DNA from: a virus
Virus genome (UHGV): UHGV-0374425
DNA length: 21,656 nucleotides
Strand: one strand, 5' to 3'
The notes under the pieces were generated by a model. The model saw nothing but the letters and a program-made list of their open reading frames with translations. It was not told where the DNA came from and made no database searches. Positions within the stretch are counted from its first letter, which is position 1. The number at the start of each line of letters is the position of its first letter. The translations under genes and the position numbers were made by a program. Of the stretch, positions 147-16,872 are shown piece by piece.

Positions 147-524
147 ACCCCATAACGCCATCGTGGCTCCGGCCGTGAAGAACGACCCCACGATGGCCGC
201 CGCCCCCAGCACAATCTGCAGTCCGCCCTTTCCGGCACCGGCCAGTCGCGGCACAATGTGGATGACCGTTCCCTCACCCAGCTGTTCGTGAAGGCGGGCA
301 TACACCGCCTCCGGTGCCGTGTCCTCACCGGCAATACGTATCTGGTACCAGCCTTCGTTCATCTGACGGCGAAAGCCCGGCACCTGCATCGACAGTGCGC
401 GGATGGCTTCCGCTGCCGTGTTCACATACAGGCTGAGGCGGCGGCCAAATCGTTGTAAATCCCCGTGAAGGCAGATGCGTGCCAGTGGCGGTGACGCCAG
501 ACTGAATGCGTTCGTCGTTGCCAT
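147..524 (-). CDS. I: Tail assembly protein I, N-terminal 126 codons (lambda gpI-like); truncated at an inversion junction near nt 140-146
   Basis: Minus-strand ATG at 524 with GAGG upstream; translation MATTNAFSLASPPLARICLHGDLQRFGRR...GSFFTAGATMALWG matches lambda gpI N-terminus; overlaps the 3' end of K by about 100 nt as recalled for lambda. Frame not in ORF track; nt 1-146 continues without a stop. Confidence 0.65.
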
Positions 525-1159
525 TTTTCGGAATACCTCTCCCGTTTACTCAGTTGTTCAGGCAGATGGTGAAGCAGTTCACCGTTGCCGCAGTAAATGG
601 CGGCATGGTTGGCCACCGATGCGCCAAAGCAGCACAGCAGAATATCGCCCGCCTGTGCAGAGGACAGGGGCACCCGGTAAAAGCCCGTGGCCTCCATATT
701 GTCCAGGTACAGGTTCTGGCCGTTGCGCCACCACTCATCCTCGCGGTGAAAATCCGGCATTTCAGTCCCCGCCAGATGGTATGCATCCCGGAACAGCGTG
801 TAACAGTCCGTCACCCCGTGCGCAAAGCGCCGTCCGGTCAGGTGCGGAACGCAGCGGAATTTGTGAATGTCACCCCGGCAGACCAGCCACCAGGGCAGGG
901 CACTTTTTATCTGCAGTCGCCGGTCTGCCTCACTCAGCCAGGGCAGACCACCGGGATGACTGTGGACCAGCGCCACAATCTCACCCTGCATCTCCGCCCG
1001 CAGCCAGTCTTCCGGGGCAATACGAAAATACGCCTCCGGCGCTGCGGAGATATTCACACAGGGCAGGTACCGCTCGCCCTCCGTCGTGGTTATCACGAAG
1101 CCGCACGACTCCGCAGGCGCACACCGCCGGGCATGCGCCAATATATTGCTATAGAGCAT
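422..1159 (-). CDS. K: Tail assembly protein K (JAB/MPN metalloprotease-like plus NlpC/P60 domains)
   Basis: 245 aa ORF with HSHP (JAMM-like) motif N-terminally and a Cys...His NlpC/P60-like region (DCYTLF ... NHAAIY); sits between L and I; CAGGAG 6 nt upstream of ATG. Confidence 0.9.
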   Translation of the reverse strand: MLYSNILAHARRCAPAESCGFVITTTEGERYLPCVNISAAPEAYFRIAPEDWLRAEMQGEIVALVHSHPGGLPWLSEADRRLQIKSALPWWLVCRGDIHKFRCVPHLTGRRFAHGVTDCYTLFRDAYHLAGTEMPDFHREDEWWRNGQNLYLDNMEATGFYRVPLSSAQAGDILLCCFGASVANHAAIYCGNGELLHHLPEQLSKRERYSEKWQRRTHSVWRHRHWHASAFTGIYNDLAAASACM

Positions 1160-1172
1160 GAGAACTCCTGAT

Positions 1173-1200
1173 AAAAAACCCAGCCGAAGCTGGGTTTGTT
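1173..1200 (-). terminator. Stem-loop (CCCAGC-ttcg-GCTGGG) plus T-run immediately upstream of the K ribosome-binding site; terminates arc-ant transcription or is a late-operon linker hairpin
   Basis: Minus strand reads CCCAGCTTCGGCTGGGTTTTTTATCAGGAGTTCTCATG; an A-run on the other side makes it potentially bidirectional. Confidence 0.6.
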
Positions 1201-1213
1201 AAGTTGTCAATTG

Positions 1214-2128
1214 TCAGTAGCGATGCAGTGAAGGCGGCAACTCTTTGTTCTTAAGCCTTTCCCATGCCAGAAGGTTCGTCGGCCCGTCAGGCTCATAAAT
1301 ATCTATATCCCGCGTGTGATTAATTAAAACGCCCCTCGCCCTCCCGATGGTATACGAGAACTCATAGCCGTAGTCGTGGCATATGCCGGAATAGCCAGAC
1401 TGAATCAGTTTTAATGCGGGATACAACTCACGGAACAATGCCTGTGAGCGGTTAGCATAATCCCATAGCCATACAAGGCTGTCTGTTTCTTTTGCGGAAA
1501 GCTCGTTGGTGCTCTTCTCTTGTTTGCCGATTAACTCTCCTTCAAGCGGAACGCGAGCAGCAAGTGACAGAGCTTCGGTAAACTGCTCCTCGCTGATTTC
1601 TTTGTACGAACATCCAAAATGTGATTTCAGTGACGACCACATGGTGATCATCGCCTTCGCCTGTTTTTCCTTTGGCAGAGACTGACCGCGACTCATGACG
1701 AGTTGTTTAATGGCTTCCTGCTGTTCAGTAGTGATTTTCCCCGGCAACGCCTTTTTAGCTTTCAGTGTATTTCCGTAAGACCCCGTTTTACGAATGGATG
1801 GCAAAACTTCAGCTGTCACCCATTTGCGGAATTTGTGCGGGACTGAACCTTTATTGACGGCATCGCGGCAACGCAGAACCAATGTATACATACCTGATTC
1901 GCTCACAATGCTTAAATTCTGCTCACCACCAAGGGTGTAACTTAAAGTTACTCCCTTTTCATCGTCATCAAGTGCAGTAAGCGCCTTGCGTGAGTTAGTC
2001 AGATTTAAAGCATCACAAACATCTTTTGCTACAAACCACGGCTCACCGCACTTGTTGATGACGCGGATTTCACTGTCGCCGAATTTGAAGATGGTGAAAT
2101 CGTTTTGTGCCTTTGCTATACTTTTCAT
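1214..2128 (-). CDS. ant: Antirepressor Ant (P22 Ant-like, BRO-N type N-terminal domain)
   Basis: 304 aa; N-terminal [16 protein letters not shown]...LDDDEKG...GGEQ...IVSESGMY...[15 protein letters not shown] closely parallels P22 Ant as recalled; AGGAAA RBS; follows the arc-like gene. Confidence 0.85.
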
Positions 2129-2200
2129 GTCAATATTTCCTAATCCGATTTGTTGATACCGAAGCCCTGACTGTTACAGCAGTTGGGGCTTCAACTTTTT
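2129..2200 (+). ncRNA. sar: Candidate sar-like antisense RNA covering the ant ribosome-binding site
   Basis: Plus-strand hairpin GAAGCCC(2161-2167)/GGGCTTC(2186-2192) followed by AACTTTTTAGG in the arc-ant intergenic region, antisense to the ant RBS; possible -10 TATACT at 2117-2122. Matches the position of P22 sar. Confidence 0.4.
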
Positions 2201-2331
2201 AGGCTGCGAATAAGACGCTGCACTATTTCTGAATTTAAAGACCTGCCCTCCTCCTTAGCCTTTTCCTTCAATTTTTCTTTAATCTCTGGCGGGATACGAA
2301 TCCCTAATGGAGCGATATCTCTAACTTTCAT
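2191..2331 (-). CDS. arc: Arc-like ribbon-helix-helix repressor (46 aa)
   Basis: MKVRDIAPLGIRIPPEIKEKLKEKAKEEGRSLNSEIVQRLIRSLKS: strand-helix-helix pattern with GRS.NSEI motif as in Arc/Mnt/CopG; directly upstream of ant. The 87 aa version in the ORF track would run across the operator region and the mnt start, so the internal ATG at 2331 is preferred. Confidence 0.7.
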   Translation of the reverse strand: MKVRDIAPLGIRIPPEIKEKLKEKAKEEGRSLNSEIVQRLIRSLKS

Positions 2332-2345
2332 TTCTTTCCCAATTG

Positions 2346-2430
2346 CTACACCGTGATAACTAAATACTACACCGTGCTTATTTAAAGTCAAAGTTTTTTT
2401 GCCTACACTGTGTAGCAATGCTACAGCGTG
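2346..2430. promoter_or_regulatory. Divergent promoter/operator region with four copies of a CTACAC(C/T/G)GTG motif, one extended to the palindrome CTACACTGTGTAG
   Basis: Motif at 2346-2355, 2367-2376, 2403-2412 (palindrome 2403-2415) and 2421-2430. Candidate -35 TTGACT / -10 TAGTAT on the minus strand for arc-ant; candidate TTTAAA / TACACT on the plus strand for mnt. Confidence 0.55.
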
Positions 2431-2441
2431 CAGGAGGAAAA

Positions 2442-2690
2442 ATGAAAGGTGCAAGAGATATCAGTCCCTTGGGAATTAGGATTCCAGACTATTTAAAGAA
2501 ACGCATTCAGCAGGAAGCGGATAAAAACGGCAGATCAATGAACTCAGAGATTGTGCTTATCCTTCAAAAACATGTTGATAATCTTGATGGCCCTCGCTCA
2601 CTTGAAGGATTCGCTAACCAAGAAGCTGACAAATTCAAAGAGGCGCTGCTTGAGACGCTAAAGACCATGTATGGTAAGGATGAAAAATAA
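2442..2690 (+). CDS. mnt: Mnt-like ribbon-helix-helix repressor (82 aa)
   Basis: MKGARDISPLGIRIPDYLKKRIQQEADKNGRSMNSEIVLILQ...: same length and RHH pattern as P22 Mnt, with C-terminal extension; strong RBS CAGGAGG at 2431-2437; the upstream ATG at 2418 lacks an RBS. Confidence 0.75.
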   Translation: MKGARDISPLGIRIPDYLKKRIQQEADKNGRSMNSEIVLILQKHVDNLDGPRSLEGFANQEADKFKEALLETLKTMYGKDEK

Positions 2691-3226
2691 TGCTGCACAC
2701 AATTCATTTCTTATGCCCCGTTAACACTGCCACTGTTGGGCAACTTCAGAACCACTGTCTCACCGCATTATCTCAAGGCGCAACTGAATTAAATATCCAT
2801 ATATCAAGTCAGGGAGGGGAAACTGCCGCTGGCTTTACTGCGTATAACTTTCTTAAGTCACTCCCTGTTACCGTTAGAACTCACAACATAAGCAATGTTG
2901 AATCCATAGCTAATATCGTTTTCCTGGCTGGCTCAGAACGTTTCGCAAACCCATTATCAAGATTCCTGTTACATCCTCTATTATGGGTCTTTGCCACCCC
3001 AGCCGCCGACCATGCCAGATTGAGAGAGTACGGGAAATGCCTCGATAACGATCTTGATCGCTTCGTTGAGACGTTCAATATCGACATCGGAACCCATATT
3101 AGGTGGGCATCCCTGATAGCAGACTCGACCATTTTGGATGCTAACAAGGCTCTTGAGCATGGCATAATTAATTCCATAAAAACTGCAAGGCTGGCATCCA
3201 ATCAGGCAAACTGGTGGGTTGTTTGA
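2690..3226 (+). CDS. ClpP-family (S14-like) serine peptidase homolog, translationally coupled to mnt
   Basis: 178 aa; NIHISSQGGETAAGFTAYNFLKSLPVTVRTHNISNVESIANIVFLAGSERFANPLSRFLLHP aligns by eye with ClpP [62 protein letters not shown]; candidate Ser, His and Asp at ClpP-equivalent positions; start ATG overlaps the mnt stop (TAATG). Confidence 0.6.
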   Translation: MLHTIHFLCPVNTATVGQLQNHCLTALSQGATELNIHISSQGGETAAGFTAYNFLKSLPVTVRTHNISNVESIANIVFLAGSERFANPLSRFLLHPLLWVFATPAADHARLREYGKCLDNDLDRFVETFNIDIGTHIRWASLIADSTILDANKALEHGIINSIKTARLASNQANWWVV

Positions 3227-3251
3227 TGGGTAAATCATGATTACTCCTTAT

Positions 3252-3273
3252 AAAAAACCCACCTGACGGTGGG
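3252..3273 (-). terminator. Rho-independent terminator-like hairpin downstream of L
   Basis: Minus strand reads CCCACCGTCAGGTGGGTTTTTTAT directly after the L stop. Confidence 0.6.
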
Positions 3274-3282
3274 CATAATCCA

Positions 3283-3981
3283 TTACTGCGAAAGTTTATT
3301 AATGGAAAGGAAACCGCCAAAATTGCCGACATTCCTGCGCAGTTCACACCCGCGCATGCACTTGCTGCATCTGTCCTTACGGATATCCGTGGTGGGTTTA
3401 TCGAACTCATCCGCCACAGCCCCGCCCGTGTAACCACACTCATCAGAGCGGTAAGTCCACATACAGGTATTCGCCAGCATAATGCGACCGGGAAACAGCG
3501 CACCGTCCGTCTCCGTCGGTGTCGCCAGCACAAACGAGGCCGTCATGGCCGTCAGCGCTGATAACTGCTCCACCACCCACCGGTCCGTCAGCTCCTGCTC
3601 CGGGTCTGCCTCCGGATTCCCCGCCACAAAGTTCACCGCATCAAGAAAACGCGCATACACCCGGCGGCGGACCACCGTGGCACCCACCAGGCTCTGCAAA
3701 TCCTCCGCCATCCCGGTGACAAGGCCGAAAAGATTGGACACCGTCAGCGACGGGCGGGCACTGCTGCCCTTTCCGTTCATCTCAAAGCCGCTGCCCTCAA
3801 TCGGGTACGCCTGATATTCACGCCCCTGCCAGGTCACCGGCTCCCCTTTTTCATTCAGCTCATTACAGAAAAAATACCGCTCACCACCCTGCACCGTCAG
3901 GTCAATTTCCCAGAGTACCACCCGCGGTGACTGCTCTGATTTAACCGACTCATTCAGGCTTTCTTCGTTGATCTCCTGCAT
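3283..3981 (-). CDS. L: Minor tail protein L
   Basis: Translation ...VVLWEIDLT..GGERYFFCNE.NEKGEPVTWQGR.YQ.YPI.GSGFE.NGKG...GNFGGFLSINKLSQ parallels lambda gpL along its length; start placed at the ATG of MQEINEESL (3981), preceded by GGTGGA, rather than the upstream ATG of the track ORF. Confidence 0.9.
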   Translation of the reverse strand: MQEINEESLNESVKSEQSPRVVLWEIDLTVQGGERYFFCNELNEKGEPVTWQGREYQAYPIEGSGFEMNGKGSSARPSLTVSNLFGLVTGMAEDLQSLVGATVVRRRVYARFLDAVNFVAGNPEADPEQELTDRWVVEQLSALTAMTASFVLATPTETDGALFPGRIMLANTCMWTYRSDECGYTGGAVADEFDKPTTDIRKDRCSKCMRGCELRRNVGNFGGFLSINKLSQ

Positions 3982-3993
3982 AAACATCCACCC

Positions 3994-4020
3994 ATAAAAA
4001 AAGGGGCGCAATGCGCCCCT
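3994..4020 (-). terminator. Strong rho-independent terminator (GGGGCGCA/TGCGCCCC stem plus T7) ending the porin transcription unit, immediately upstream of the L start
   Basis: Minus strand reads AGGGGCGCATTGCGCCCCTTTTTTTATGGGTGGATGTTTATG. Confidence 0.7.
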
Positions 4021-4177
4021 GATAAAATAGTTCAATTAAAAAATCAAAAACGATGAAGGTAATAAAATGAAAATTAAATCAGCTAATAGCTGATCGCAGT
4101 GACCAGTGGAAATATAACTTCCACTGATACAGGCCATCTGTGAGGGCAGATGGCCTGTATTTATTTACCAGTAATCA

Positions 4178-5341
4178 TCAGAACTGATAAGTCATACCAA
4201 CAGCAACGATATCATCCGTTGCAATGCCCGCATCCCTGGTAAACTTATTCTCATCAACCAGATTGATTTTATAATCAACATAGGTGGACATATTTTTATT
4301 GAAGTAATATTTCGCACCTACGTCAACATACTTAACCAAATCCTGGTCACCATAGTTTTTACCACCTACAATGACATCCTGAGCACGAGACTGCAGGAAT
4401 GCCAGAGATGGACGCAGACCGAAATCAAACTGATACTGCAGTACCGCTTCAAAGTTTTGCGCTTTATCTGCAACTCCTTTATCACCAAAGGTCGTCAGAT
4501 TCTGAGTTTCGGAATATGTTGTAGCCAGGTAAAGGTTGTCAGCATCGTATTTTAGTCCGACTCCCCACATCTCAGCGTGTTTACCTTTTGCAACACTACC
4601 GGAATCAACAACGATCTGCTTTTCAGTCACTTTACCGGTTAAAGGATCAGTTTGTTCAATCGTCAGAGTACCATTCAGACCTTTTTCCTGATTATTGGTT
4701 CGGTCCGCATTAATATATGCGGCAACGATACCAAAACCTTCATATTCATAACTGGCTGAGAAACCGTGACCATCACCATTAGCTTCCCGGAGATCACCCC
4801 GATCATTTTTACCCTGGTACTGTGCCGCAAAATTCAGGCCATCGACAAGCCCAAAGAAATCTGTATTACGATAGGTTAATACCCCGGAAGTACGGGCTGT
4901 CATGAAGTTATCGGTCTGGGTCCAGCCATCACCGCCAAACTCTGGTAATACGTCAGTATAAGAACCAACATCGTACGCAATACCATAGTTACGACCATAA
5001 TCAATGGTGCCAAACTCACCAAACTTCAGACCTGCAAATGCAAGACGGGTTTTATTACCCGCAGCACCCTCTGATTCAGCTTTATTACCAGAGAACTGAT
5101 ATTCCCACTGACCAAAACCAGTCAACTGGTCATTAATCTGAGTTTCACCTTTAAAGCCCAGACGTGCGTATGTCTTATCTCCATCATCCCCCTTATCACT
5201 GGAGAAATAATGGAGTGCAGTTGCACGCCCATACACATCAAGTTTATTGCCATCTTTATTGTATACTTCTGCAGCCTGCGCCCCCGCTGCAAAAATTACA
5301 GCTGCTGCCACAGCTGAAAGTGCCACTGTCATTTTTTTCAT
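4178..5341 (-). CDS. OmpC/OmpF/NmpC-family general porin (prophage moron) with signal peptide
   Basis: 387 aa; signal peptide ending [51 protein letters not shown] and C-terminal ...YVDYKINL...GMTYQF match E. coli OmpC as recalled; AT-rich upstream region; hairpins downstream. Confidence 0.9.
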
Positions 5342-5439
5342 GATTTAATCCTTATTTAAACTGAACTATTCATGCATAGAGATGTCATGAACAAAACTCA
5401 AAATATTGTAAATTAAATTACGGGTTCAATTTTTATTTT

Positions 5440-5454
5440 GTTTCAAAATGTAAA
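5440..5454 (-). promoter_or_regulatory. OmpR-box-like sequence TTTACATTTTGAAAC in the porin upstream region
   Basis: Minus-strand TTTACATTTTGAAAC matches the core of E. coli ompC OmpR sites as recalled; lies about 100 nt upstream of the porin ATG in an AT-rich region (5342-5547). Confidence 0.45.
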
Positions 5455-5547
5455 AAAACAACTTTGATAGCACTTTATGTCAAGACAAAACAAAAATAAC
5501 AAGCAAGCAAATTAATAAACGATGCTTTTAGGTTTTTTCTCAAAAAC

Positions 5548-5889
5548 TTATCTTATTACCTGTTCCATCATACAACTGAAATCGCTGTACCTGGCGTTAT
5601 CCGTAATACTCCACTCCCGGCACACCACCCTGACCGTCCGGTTATGTTTCGGGGGTTTCCACAAAAAGGCACGGTAACCACCATGCCACGATAAAAATTC
5701 ATCCAGCCAGCGCCGGGTCGCCTCATCCGTCACCCGGAACACTGCCTGAAATGTCTTCAGTCGGGCATTCAGTCCCGTCGGTCGGCGCTGTTCATAACCG
5801 TCACCAAACCGGACCCTCACCACCGACGGTTTCTCACTCACCTGCATCCCTTCACGCGGGACCAGATGCAGCGTTTTTATCTCAGCCAC
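5548..5889 (-). CDS. M: Minor tail protein M
   Basis: 113 aa; VRFGDGYEQR...GLNA.LKT...FLWKPP pattern matches lambda gpM; GTG start overlaps the end of H. Confidence 0.8.
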   Translation of the reverse strand: MAEIKTLHLVPREGMQVSEKPSVVRVRFGDGYEQRRPTGLNARLKTFQAVFRVTDEATRRWLDEFLSWHGGYRAFLWKPPKHNRTVRVVCREWSITDNARYSDFSCMMEQVIR

Positions 5890-14934: not shown

Positions 14935-16872
14935 TCAGCCGCCGGACGCACTGCCGTAGTTCACTCCGGTGATCACCGCCACCGCCGCGGTACGGCGACG
15001 ACGCCAGTTGATCCAGCGCTCCGCACGGATGGCCACGCTGCCTGTCTGGAACATGGAAACCAGCTCCACCGGCGACGGCGTGGTACTGTCGCCGGTCGGC
15101 TCAGACTGCATTTCCAGTGATGCCTCGCGGGACATATCCACTGCCACGCCGCCGTCATCCGCCAGATAAATATCCGGGGCATTCACCAGCACCAGCTGGT
15201 CACCCACGTACTGAGAGACAATCACCGGCAGCCCCTGGAAGGTCCCCCCCAGCAGGGTCATGTCCGGATATTCCTTCTGACCCAGCGCATTTTTACGCAT
15301 GGACAGTGCCAGGGCATTTGTGCTGGACATCAGCCAGACCGCACCGGTGGGCTGCAGGTTTGCTGCCACAAACTGTCCAAACGCCGCCTCTGCATCCGCA
15401 TCCGGGTTACCGCTTGATGCCGTGCCCTTCACATCATGGGTGATGGACGCCGGGGAGACATCTGCCACCGCCGCTTTTTTCGGGTCCACAAAGTCTGTAT
15501 CCAGACGCGCCACCACCGCTTCCGCCAGCGCATTACGGACCAGTGCATCAGCAGCCGGACTGGAAAAACGGATCAATTCTTCCGTCAGTACCGCAATGGC
15601 CGACACCTTCGCATGACTGAAGGTGATGGATTCAAAATCAAACTTCGTCAGGGGTTTTGCCTTACCCTCCCCCACCCAGCCGGCAGCACCGCCGGACACC
15701 TGGGCGTGCACACGGATATTGAACGGCACCTGACGAAGTGCAGGGATCCCGCCCTGACCAAATCGCCCGATAATGGTCTGAGGACGCAGGTAATCAATAA
15801 AGTCCTGTGCATATTCCTGATATTCAGACAGGCTGCCTGCCCACTGCGGATCCGTGGTGGTCCCCGCGCCCACTGCCGATTTCAGGACATGATGCAGACG
15901 ACTGTCATCAGGATACTGACGACGGGCCACTTCCAGGGCTTCAGAGCGGACACCTTTAGCCGCAGCCAGTGATTTGGCAAAGCGGGCGAAGCCAATCCCC
16001 TTATCCAGTTTCTGCTCCACACGGATCACCGGCGCAGAAGCCACCGCGGCCACATTCCCGTTACCGGCCTGTTTCACCGGCTGCGCCGTGGCGGCCTTAC
16101 CGGCTTCCAGTTCACGCAGGCGCTTCAGGTGCGCATCCACCTGACGGATTTCCGCTGCGGTGTTGTCGTAATGCTCCTCCTCCTCCACATCCAGCGTGCG
16201 CCCTTCCTCTGCGGCTTTGGTCATGACCTCCTCAAGGGAGGCTGCCAGCGCTGCACGCTTGTTTTCAAAACTTTTAATCTGTTCGCCAATATTCATTATG
16301 GTCTTTTCCTTATGAAAAACGGTTGTTGACTGTGCCGCAGCGCCGGCAGAAGATGCGATTTTCACCACCGGTTTCCGGTTGCCGGACGCGGCAGAAAACG
16401 GGCGGTCGTAAGATTTAATGGTCCGGATGGTGCATTCCGCATTCGCGGGCACGGTAACGGCAGACACCTCCATCAGTTCCCAGCGCAGAAAATGCAGTCC
16501 ACCTCCGTCCAGAAAGGTGTATTCATGGGGACGGAAGCCCACGGACAGCCCCCTGACCAGCCCGGTCTTAATGGCCGCCCAGACCTCATCCAGCCGGGCA
16601 GCCAGTTGCGACGGCATATCCGGTACGGGCTTCACCAGTGTTGCCGTGATTTCCAGCCCTTCGCTGACCCGGCGCACCGTACACTGCCCCACCGGGCGGG
16701 AATGGTCATGCTGCCAGAGAAACGGGATCGCACTGCCAAACTCCGCGCCCTCCGGCTCCAGGATGTCACCATCCCGATCCGGAGAAGGCGTTGACGCAAT
16801 CCCGGTGATCACCCGCTCATCCTCACTGAAGGATTTCACCGTCAGCAGGGAGCAGGCCCGTTTAAGAGTCAC
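14935..16872 (-). CDS. Fused prohead protease (HK97 gp4-like) / scaffold-like coiled coil / HK97-family major capsid protein
   Basis: 645 aa; N-terminal about 170 aa has the prohead-protease pattern (...GIASTP..DRDGDIL..GAF...GLSVGF...ELMEVSAVTVPAN); then a charged coiled-coil segment; C-terminal about 400 aa capsid-like; GTG start with AGGAGG RBS. Confidence 0.8.
   Translation of the reverse strand: MTLKRACSLLTVKSFSEDERVITGIASTPSPDRDGDILEPEGAEFGSAIPFLWQHDHSRPVGQCTVRRVSEGLEITATLVKPVPDMPSQLAARLDEVWAAIKTGLVRGLSVGFRPHEYTFLDGGGLHFLRWELMEVSAVTVPANAECTIRTIKSYDRPFSAASGNRKPVVKIASSAGAAAQSTTVFHKEKTIMNIGEQIKSFENKRAALAASLEEVMTKAAEEGRTLDVEEEEHYDNTAAEIRQVDAHLKRLRELEAGKAATAQPVKQAGNGNVAAVASAPVIRVEQKLDKGIGFARFAKSLAAAKGVRSEALEVARRQYPDDSRLHHVLKSAVGAGTTTDPQWAGSLSEYQEYAQDFIDYLRPQTIIGRFGQGGIPALRQVPFNIRVHAQVSGGAAGWVGEGKAKPLTKFDFESITFSHAKVSAIAVLTEELIRFSSPAADALVRNALAEAVVARLDTDFVDPKKAAVADVSPASITHDVKGTASSGNPDADAEAAFGQFVAANLQPTGAVWLMSSTNALALSMRKNALGQKEYPDMTLLGGTFQGLPVIVSQYVGDQLVLVNAPDIYLADDGGVAVDMSREASLEMQSEPTGDSTTPSPVELVSMFQTGSVAIRAERWINWRRRRTAAVAVITGVNYGSASGG

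Follow-up and report, generated by a model that had tools for sequence, protein, structure and literature searches.

A putative gate-less ClpP paralogue coupled to an mnt-like repressor gene, a possible lysogen-side cargo of a lambdoid Escherichia coli prophage

PpClpP1 of Pseudomonas plecoglossicida is a ClpP of 183 amino acids (aa) that lacks the N-terminal region; its structure has been deposited in the PDB as 9UXT (PLoS Pathog 2026, PMC12900304). Alone it forms a homotetradecamer with an axial pore of 42.7 Å. The active site is Ser-His-Pro, of which the Ser and the His are needed for activity, and its peptidase activity is 13-fold below that of canonical ClpP2. On its own it neither binds ClpX nor breaks down casein or GFP-ssrA. 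Combined with canonical ClpP2 it yields a stable heterotetradecamer, which has higher activity and to which ClpX does bind (PMC12900304). Mixed tetradecamers containing a ClpX-binding paralogue are also described for P. aeruginosa ClpP2, Listeria ClpP1 and M. tuberculosis ClpP1P2 (PMC12900304). Here we analyse a gene, which we term clpP-like, whose 178-aa product is a phage-borne member of the PpClpP1 family. It lies in the virus genome UHGV-0374425, in a stretch of 21,656 nucleotides (nt) that we call the window. The window contains the late region of a lambdoid E. coli prophage, in which every structural gene is on the minus strand. The clpP-like gene is on the plus strand, directly behind and overlapping the gene of an Mnt-like ribbon-helix-helix (RHH) repressor.

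The second point of reference is the immI region of phage P22. A hypervariable 'ant moron' with cargo downstream of mnt was described in 2008 (PMC2629481). In the window mnt, presumed operators, arc, sar and ant have the same order and orientation as in P22, and there is again a cargo slot downstream of mnt. The location differs, since the whole P22-type set (ant, sar, arc, presumed operators and mnt, 1214–3226) is inserted between tail genes K and L, in the tail cluster of a lambdoid siphovirus, whereas the P22 module stands before the tailspike gene. The cargo differs also, being a ClpP paralogue coupled to mnt in the window and orf59a plus sieA in P22. The initial annotation held P22 mnt to be monocistronic. 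This is not borne out by the annotated P22 record, in which mnt is followed by the co-directional orf59a, a terminator, a separate promoter and sieA.

The 178-aa protein matches the Pfam model CLP_protease (PF00574) with 44.9 bits, against a gathering cut-off of 20.2 (expectation value, E, 1.6e-11), and reaches neither the NCBIfam cut-off for cellular ClpP nor that for the ClpP-related head protease. The catalytic Ser and His both align, and the refuting outcome named initially, best matches to a non-peptidase crotonase-fold enzyme without them, did not arise. By far the nearest solved relative is 9UXT (phmmer E 2e-35 over residues 3–175), the next best being at ~5e-7. The monomer modelled with AlphaFold (AF2) has the ClpP fold, with a mean predicted local distance difference test (pLDDT) score of 89.7. 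In Foldseek the model superposes on 9UXT with a template modelling (TM) score of 0.88 and a root-mean-square deviation of 2.5 Å. The TM score is 0.72 to E. coli ClpP, and 0.72–0.78 across E. coli and S. aureus ClpP with a probability of 1.00. Sequence identity is ~40% to PpClpP1 and ~25% to E. coli ClpP. The initial description of a relative of ClpP-fold peptidases is thus well founded.

Ser72 and His95 correspond to Ser97 and His122 of E. coli ClpP, and are invariant in 21/21 family members. Gly43 corresponds to Gly68 of the ClpP oxyanion hole and is also invariant in the family. A full Ser-His-Asp triad had been suggested for the protein; the Ser and His stand, while the Asp does not. Asp145 aligns with Arg170 of ClpP and varies across the family, and the position of ClpP Asp171 is occupied by Ser146. 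Among the 21 members this position is Ala in 10, Ser in 9 and Gly in 2. The replacement of Ser-Met-Gly by Ser-Ile-Ala around the nucleophile had been taken as a reason to doubt activity. This carries little weight, because Ile or Val is the norm in the family and PpClpP1 remains dependent on its Ser and His, although its activity is low. Comparison with the 79%-identical copy from Pectobacterium gives a ratio of nonsynonymous to synonymous substitution (dN/dS) of 0.077, which indicates strong purifying selection and a functional gene.

At the N-terminus, Met1 aligns with Lys25 of mature ClpP, so that mature residues 1–24, comprising the axial loops or gate and helix A, have no counterpart. The docking residues L23 and L24 of ClpP consequently have no equivalent, and at the level of sequence the remainder of the docking pocket carries the substitutions Y60N, Y62H, F82S, I90H, L114N and L189K. 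The surface that would receive the IGF/IGL loops of ClpX and ClpA is predicted to be mostly polar. When compared with E. coli ClpP, the handle helix is longer by an insertion of 6 residues. Ser57, His65 and Asn87 hardly vary across the short ClpP family, and a near-invariant polar T-H-N motif (residues 64–66) is found where ClpP has hydrophobic pocket residues. A C-terminal NWWV tail (residues 174–177) is common to the phage and Massilia clades and is not found in the Pseudomonas proteins. Either the T-H-N surface or the NWWV tail could be a putative partner-binding surface. The initial annotation recognised neither the missing gate and docking pocket nor the existence of a characterised homologue.

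With canonical ClpP (E. coli; MEROPS S14) the protein shares the fold, the catalytic Ser and His and the oxyanion Gly. It differs in the lack of residues 1–24 and of an Asp171 equivalent, in having six polar pocket residues and in the handle insertion, and its gene does not adjoin clpX. With PpClpP1 it shares a length of ~180 aa, the absence of an N-terminal gate, the retention of Ser and His and a non-acidic third residue, which is Pro in PpClpP1 and Ser146 in the window protein. PpClpP1 is encoded on the chromosome beside KGG stress-protein genes, whereas the gene in the window is phage cargo coupled to mnt. The biochemical behaviour of PpClpP1 has been characterised; that of the phage clade is predicted. 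The ClpP paralogues that enter heterocomplexes resemble the family in that the second ClpP is weak or inactive alone, but they are full-length, chromosomal and distant in sequence, with the best solved chains at E ~5e-7 or worse. Taking these comparisons together, we class the 178-aa protein, on its predicted features, as a phage-borne short ClpP paralogue of the PpClpP1 family.

The upstream gene was identified initially as an Mnt-like RHH repressor, and the identification is secure. Its product shares 32.5% identity with P22 Mnt across residues 4–79, nearly the full length. P22 Mnt (1MNT) is the best solved relative, with an alignment that continues through the C-terminal region, and the C-terminal region model PF11423 is matched on the Pectobacterium copy. 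The start codon agrees with that annotated in phage PhiR12_1. The limits given initially for the two open reading frames (ORFs) are exact. The mnt stop codon and the ATG of the clpP-like gene share one base (TAATG), and an AAGGA lies 9 nt before that ATG. As originally described, the pair is antisense to the structural genes, including tail genes K, L, M and H, and divergent from arc-ant. The N-terminal DNA-reading strands of the Arc-like and Mnt-like proteins are nearly alike (MKVRDIAPLGIRIP and MKGARDISPLGIRIP). This, with the four copies of a single motif in the control region between their genes, suggests that the two repressors share a half-site, unlike Arc and Mnt of P22.

Relatives of the clpP-like gene were sampled in 54 reference-genome loci, 80 IMG/VR loci and several further loci from exact-protein look-ups. 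The one-base overlap of an RHH gene with the clpP-like gene is present in all ~40 retrieved loci at ≥79% identity, in two genera. The Mnt proteins encoded upstream differ widely in DNA-binding type, with at least six types represented, one near-identical to P22 Mnt, and every one of them ends in a shared dozen residues, ...ETLKTMYGKDEK. Across the clpP-like gene the DNA of the E. coli cassettes is 98–100% identical, in lambdoid and P22-like phages alike. Identity drops to ~50–60% within 50–100 bp upstream of the clpP-like ATG and also shortly beyond the stop codon, where the cassette identity ends after ~20–50 bp. In E. coli MS 196-1 a second, unrelated RHH gene lies between mnt and the clpP-like gene (a 255-bp insertion; locus L002, 2994–3245). 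In a multiple alignment the insertion is exactly at the junction, and its 3′ end repeats ~40 bp (compare 2650–2690 of the window), from which the 3′ end of mnt would act as a recombination site for cassette swapping. We conclude that the clpP-like gene is conserved and moves as a compact cassette, and that its coupling to mnt is a mosaic junction.

The slot downstream of mnt is used by other genes. In relatives from O157:H7 this immI also stands between L and K; mnt is present and a clpP-like gene is not. Other E. coli P22-like prophages have unrelated small genes coupled to mnt by a 4-base overlap, as at 2038–3076 of locus L154 and 2048–2365 of locus L155, the latter with a Panacea-domain gene nearby. 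PADLOC scans of these alternative cargo genes, and of Arc and Ant, gave nothing meaningful. The alternative cargoes, the mosaic junction and the occurrence of mnt without a clpP-like gene together indicate that the latter is one cargo among several that ride on mnt expression. It is optional cargo and not a component of the immI circuit.

The wider family is large, with 224 clusters (50% identity) at E ≤1e-30, nearly all of 180–200 aa. A neighbour-joining tree, constructed without bootstrap support, has three clades, namely Pseudomonas; Massilia and other Oxalobacteraceae; and a phage-borne clade from Enterobacterales and Chromobacterium. In the first the gene is chromosomal in many species, beside KGG stress-protein genes and DUF6555. 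In both synteny types examined the PpClpP1 orthologues (L145–L150, gene at 5001–5552) stand amid small KGG-repeat genes and DUF6555. This neighbourhood hints at a role in stress or stationary phase, a point absent from the 9UXT paper. The Massilia/Oxalobacteraceae genes are also chromosomal, with conserved synteny. Long plus-strand ORFs upstream of the Massilia genes were considered as partners and rejected as antisense shadows in high-GC DNA; the real minus-strand genes beneath them encode a polysaccharide deacetylase and a xanthine-dehydrogenase-like protein.

In the phage-borne clade the gene is nearly always opposite in strand to the flanking late genes, and occupies several cargo sites. 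At ~25 loci of Klebsiella and E. coli it lies between Rz/endolysin and terminase/HNH, the position that bor has in lambda. In others it lies between the tape-measure and baseplate genes of myovirus-type tails, and further sites exist. The pairing of regulator and protease emphasized in the initial annotation is real inside one subclade and does not extend beyond it. The mnt-coupled copies form a single terminal subclade (≥79% identity), found in E. coli lambdoid and P22-like phages and a Pectobacterium P22-like prophage. The phage copies at ≤74% identity are stand-alone, none having an RHH gene upstream, and the nearest uncoupled relatives (74% and 68% identity) lie outside immI. The chromosomal clades likewise have no RHH partner. 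The homologues surveyed are not head proteases.

The mnt-clpP-like cassette occurs in 126/5426 complete E. coli genomes (~2%), including extraintestinal pathogenic (ExPEC) and avian pathogenic (APEC) strains, and a divergent variant of the clpP-like gene is common in Klebsiella prophages. Parts of the K–L stretch (query 1200–4100, flanking tail genes included) are matched in 2238/5426 E. coli genomes. E. coli variants of ~52% identity, at the HNH/terminase-to-lysis site (L127–L133), have a conserved 182-aa ORF on the same strand (~3374–3922, plus), 78 nt upstream. This ORF has no match in Pfam or PADLOC, and is possibly part of a different two-gene arrangement. Public records label the clpP-like gene variously as 'ATP-dependent Clp protease proteolytic subunit', 'head maturation protease' and 'hypothetical protein'. 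In PHROGs-derived annotation the Mnt homologue is called 'partition protein ATPase' (phrog_2685, phrog_795), which looks like a propagated misnomer.

By analogy with PpClpP1 we propose, with moderate confidence, that the clpP-like protein is a cargo expressed in the lysogen that acts through a mixed tetradecamer with the single canonical ClpP of the host to modify Clp proteolysis. The gene would be transcribed from the mnt promoter and translated by coupling to mnt. Since Mnt is a repressor that maintains lysogeny, we infer that the protein is made continuously in the lysogen. The product is a ClpP core with the Ser72-His95 pair retained, and with no axial gate, helix A or acidic third residue. 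Having neither gate nor acidic residue, and a polar docking surface, it is expected to be a weak peptidase on its own, one that no unfoldase feeds. Following the PpClpP1 model, a ring of the 178-aa protein would stack on a ring of host ClpP, so that the ClpXP and ClpAP machines of the lysogen would contain mixed particles with altered activity and a single remaining face for unfoldase docking. Such a mixed complex, with a possible benefit to phage or host, is most likely how the protein works. More tentatively, a gate-less ClpP ring that hybridises with host ClpP and reprograms ClpXP and ClpAP is a possible lysogenic-conversion factor of temperate Enterobacterales phages.

Several points weigh against this proposal. 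Identity to PpClpP1, and still more to E. coli ClpP, is low, and the handle insertion could hinder the pairing of rings. Preparations of PpClpP1 from E. coli were homotetradecameric (PMC12900304), so that capture of E. coli ClpP is not automatic. Transcripts of mnt were undetected in one E. coli P22-like lysogen (PMC12922286), and a consensus scan found no strong plus-strand sigma-70 promoter upstream of mnt. On the other strand the scan gave a Pant-like promoter into arc-ant; the number of matches is not above that in shuffled sequence, so that support for this promoter is positional only.

The 178-aa protein might alternatively be a superinfection-exclusion or anti-phage effector, for example degrading unfolded ejected proteins or disturbing the Clp-dependent steps of an invader. 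It occupies the slot in which P22 has orf59a and sieA (PMC2629481), its relatives are found at classic sites of lysogen-expressed cargo antisense to late genes, and its distribution in E. coli is patchy. Against this, neither the protein nor its Mnt partner matches PADLOC-DB 2.0.0 (no family at E ≤0.1), and the family is not tied to defence in the literature searched. The failure of PpClpP1 alone to degrade casein or GFP-ssrA also speaks against it, as do the vertically inherited chromosomal copies of Pseudomonas and Massilia in non-defence contexts. A defence role is the main rival to our proposal, suggested by position only, and we consider it unlikely.

The initial annotation raised the idea of a proteolytic switch acting on Ant or repressor stability. 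Dedicated to immI, such a protease would tune induction through degradation of Ant, Arc, Mnt or the primary repressor. The constancy of the coupling throughout the subclade, across its many Mnt types, and the proximity of arc-sar-ant are what might be expected of such a switch. The gene is nevertheless found outside immI, with no RHH gene directly upstream, in the 74% and 68% relatives and in every phage copy more distant than these. The coupled copies make up just one terminal subclade, many phages with the same immI lack the gene, and other cargo is likewise coupled to mnt. This explanation is improbable. We give a similarly low weight to the possibility that the protein is a mimic of ClpP whose catalytic residues are irrelevant, poisoning or sequestering host rings to inhibit ClpXP and ClpAP. 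The non-acidic third residue, the lack of a gate, the polar pocket and the low intrinsic activity of the homologue would all suit a mimic. By contrast, the invariance of Ser72, His95 and Gly43 in the family would not, and PpClpP1 requires its Ser and His and gives a mixed complex that is more active, not less.

Two overlapping genes with an RHH protein encoded first recall a toxin-antitoxin pair, with an RHH antitoxin or regulator and a protease toxin, and the RHH protein weakly matches FitA-like and RelB-like models. Yet it is a full-length Mnt homologue, C-terminal region included, facing arc-sar-ant across presumed shared operators. The protease is alone in most phages and chromosomes, so the pair is not conserved, and E. 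coli MS 196-1 tolerates the second RHH gene between the two; we regard this explanation as very improbable. The remaining candidate, a displaced or remnant ClpP-type head-maturation protease, has in its favour the best PHROG match (phrog_94, E 1.5e-20), the best NCBIfam match (NF045542, E 3.7e-13), an annotation to this effect in one phage record and the general likeness of a ClpP fold in a phage genome. It was rejected, and we give it practically no credence. The NF045542 score of 49.7 bits is far below the cut-off of 120, and the gene lies on the opposite strand from the head genes and far away from them, with no scaffold or capsid partner. The phage has (as noted initially) its own HK97-type protease fused to the capsid protein, to which the 178-aa protein bears no relationship. 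Phages whose head modules differ greatly carry this gene, and cellular PpClpP1 is a far closer relative.

Table 1. Features of the window around the mnt and clpP-like genes, with the basis of each assignment
Feature	Position	Strand	Basis
Tail gene K	422-1159	-	ORF and profile annotation
ant antirepressor, 304 aa	1214-2128	-	Pfam Bro-N E 2.5e-20, P22_AR_C E 2.2e-25; phrog_245 E 1.5e-103
sar antisense RNA of immI	2130-2196	+	Rfam RF00262, 69.4 bits against gathering cut-off of 43, E 8.5e-13, full-length
arc-like RHH gene, 46 aa from ATG at 2331	2191-2331	-	Pfam Arc E 2.7e-12
arc-mnt intergenic control region with four CTACAC(C/T)GTG copies, presumed Arc/Mnt operators	2344-2430		Repeat search
Pant-like sigma-70 promoter, TTGACT-16-TAGTAT, into arc-ant	2364-2391	-	Consensus scan
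mnt-like RHH repressor gene, 82 aa	2442-2690	+	Pfam Arc PF03869 E 6e-8; 1MNT E 1.6e-5
AAGGA, Shine-Dalgarno sequence of clpP-like gene, within conserved 3′ end of mnt	2676-2680	+	Sequence reading
Short clpP-like gene, 178 aa	2690-3226	+	Pfam PF00574 E 1.6e-11; phmmer to 9UXT E 2e-35
Terminator-like hairpin and T-run between tail L and cassette, at downstream edge of cassette	3257-3274	-	Terminator scan
Tail gene L	3283-4035	-	Pfam Phage_tail_L E 1.5e-92
General porin gene, full-length, 387 aa, between tail M and L	4178-5341	-	Pfam Porin_1 E 2.9e-139
Tail gene M	5548-5889	-	ORF and profile annotation
Tape-measure gene	5882-9124	-	ORF and profile annotation
HK97-type protease fused to major capsid protein	14935-16872	-	Profile match

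The remaining features of the window are collected in Table 1; the portal gene is also on the minus strand. In identical E. coli loci, as in PhiR12_1, the arc-like gene has been given a length of 141 nt and the name YlcI/YnfO or Arc. We note that phage PhiR12_1 and the O157 relatives have no porin gene at this position; the gene is probably a second cargo for lysogenic conversion.

Searches of the literature for a ClpP encoded by a phage or prophage, for ClpP-like defence and for a ClpP moron yielded only one paper on this family (PMC12900304). The prophage phiv205-1 has been reported to affect biofilm formation and adhesion, with no gene-level link to the clpP-like protein reported. The immI module and its cargo slot are known; what is new is the phage-borne branch of a family first characterised in 2026. 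A gate-less ClpP carried as lysogen-side phage cargo, in one lineage hard-wired to mnt, appears to be undescribed in the literature searched. The analysis also corrects the public annotation, in that the 178-aa protein should be considered neither ATP-dependent by itself nor a head protease.

Phages interfere with host proteases by means of inhibitors and adaptors, such as T4 PinA, lambda CIII and SPO1 Gp53. A ClpP subunit supplied by the phage would reach that end by another means. If our proposal is correct, the protein would be a proteolytic subunit that works inside the host protease and is neither inhibitor nor adaptor, for which we found no precedent in the literature searched. PpClpP1 supplies the biochemical behaviour to look for and, given that the gene stands behind a lysogeny repressor, the natural place to look for it is the lysogen. 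Incorporation of such a subunit would then have consequences for the stress physiology of the lysogen, for the stability of lysogeny or for resistance to other phages.

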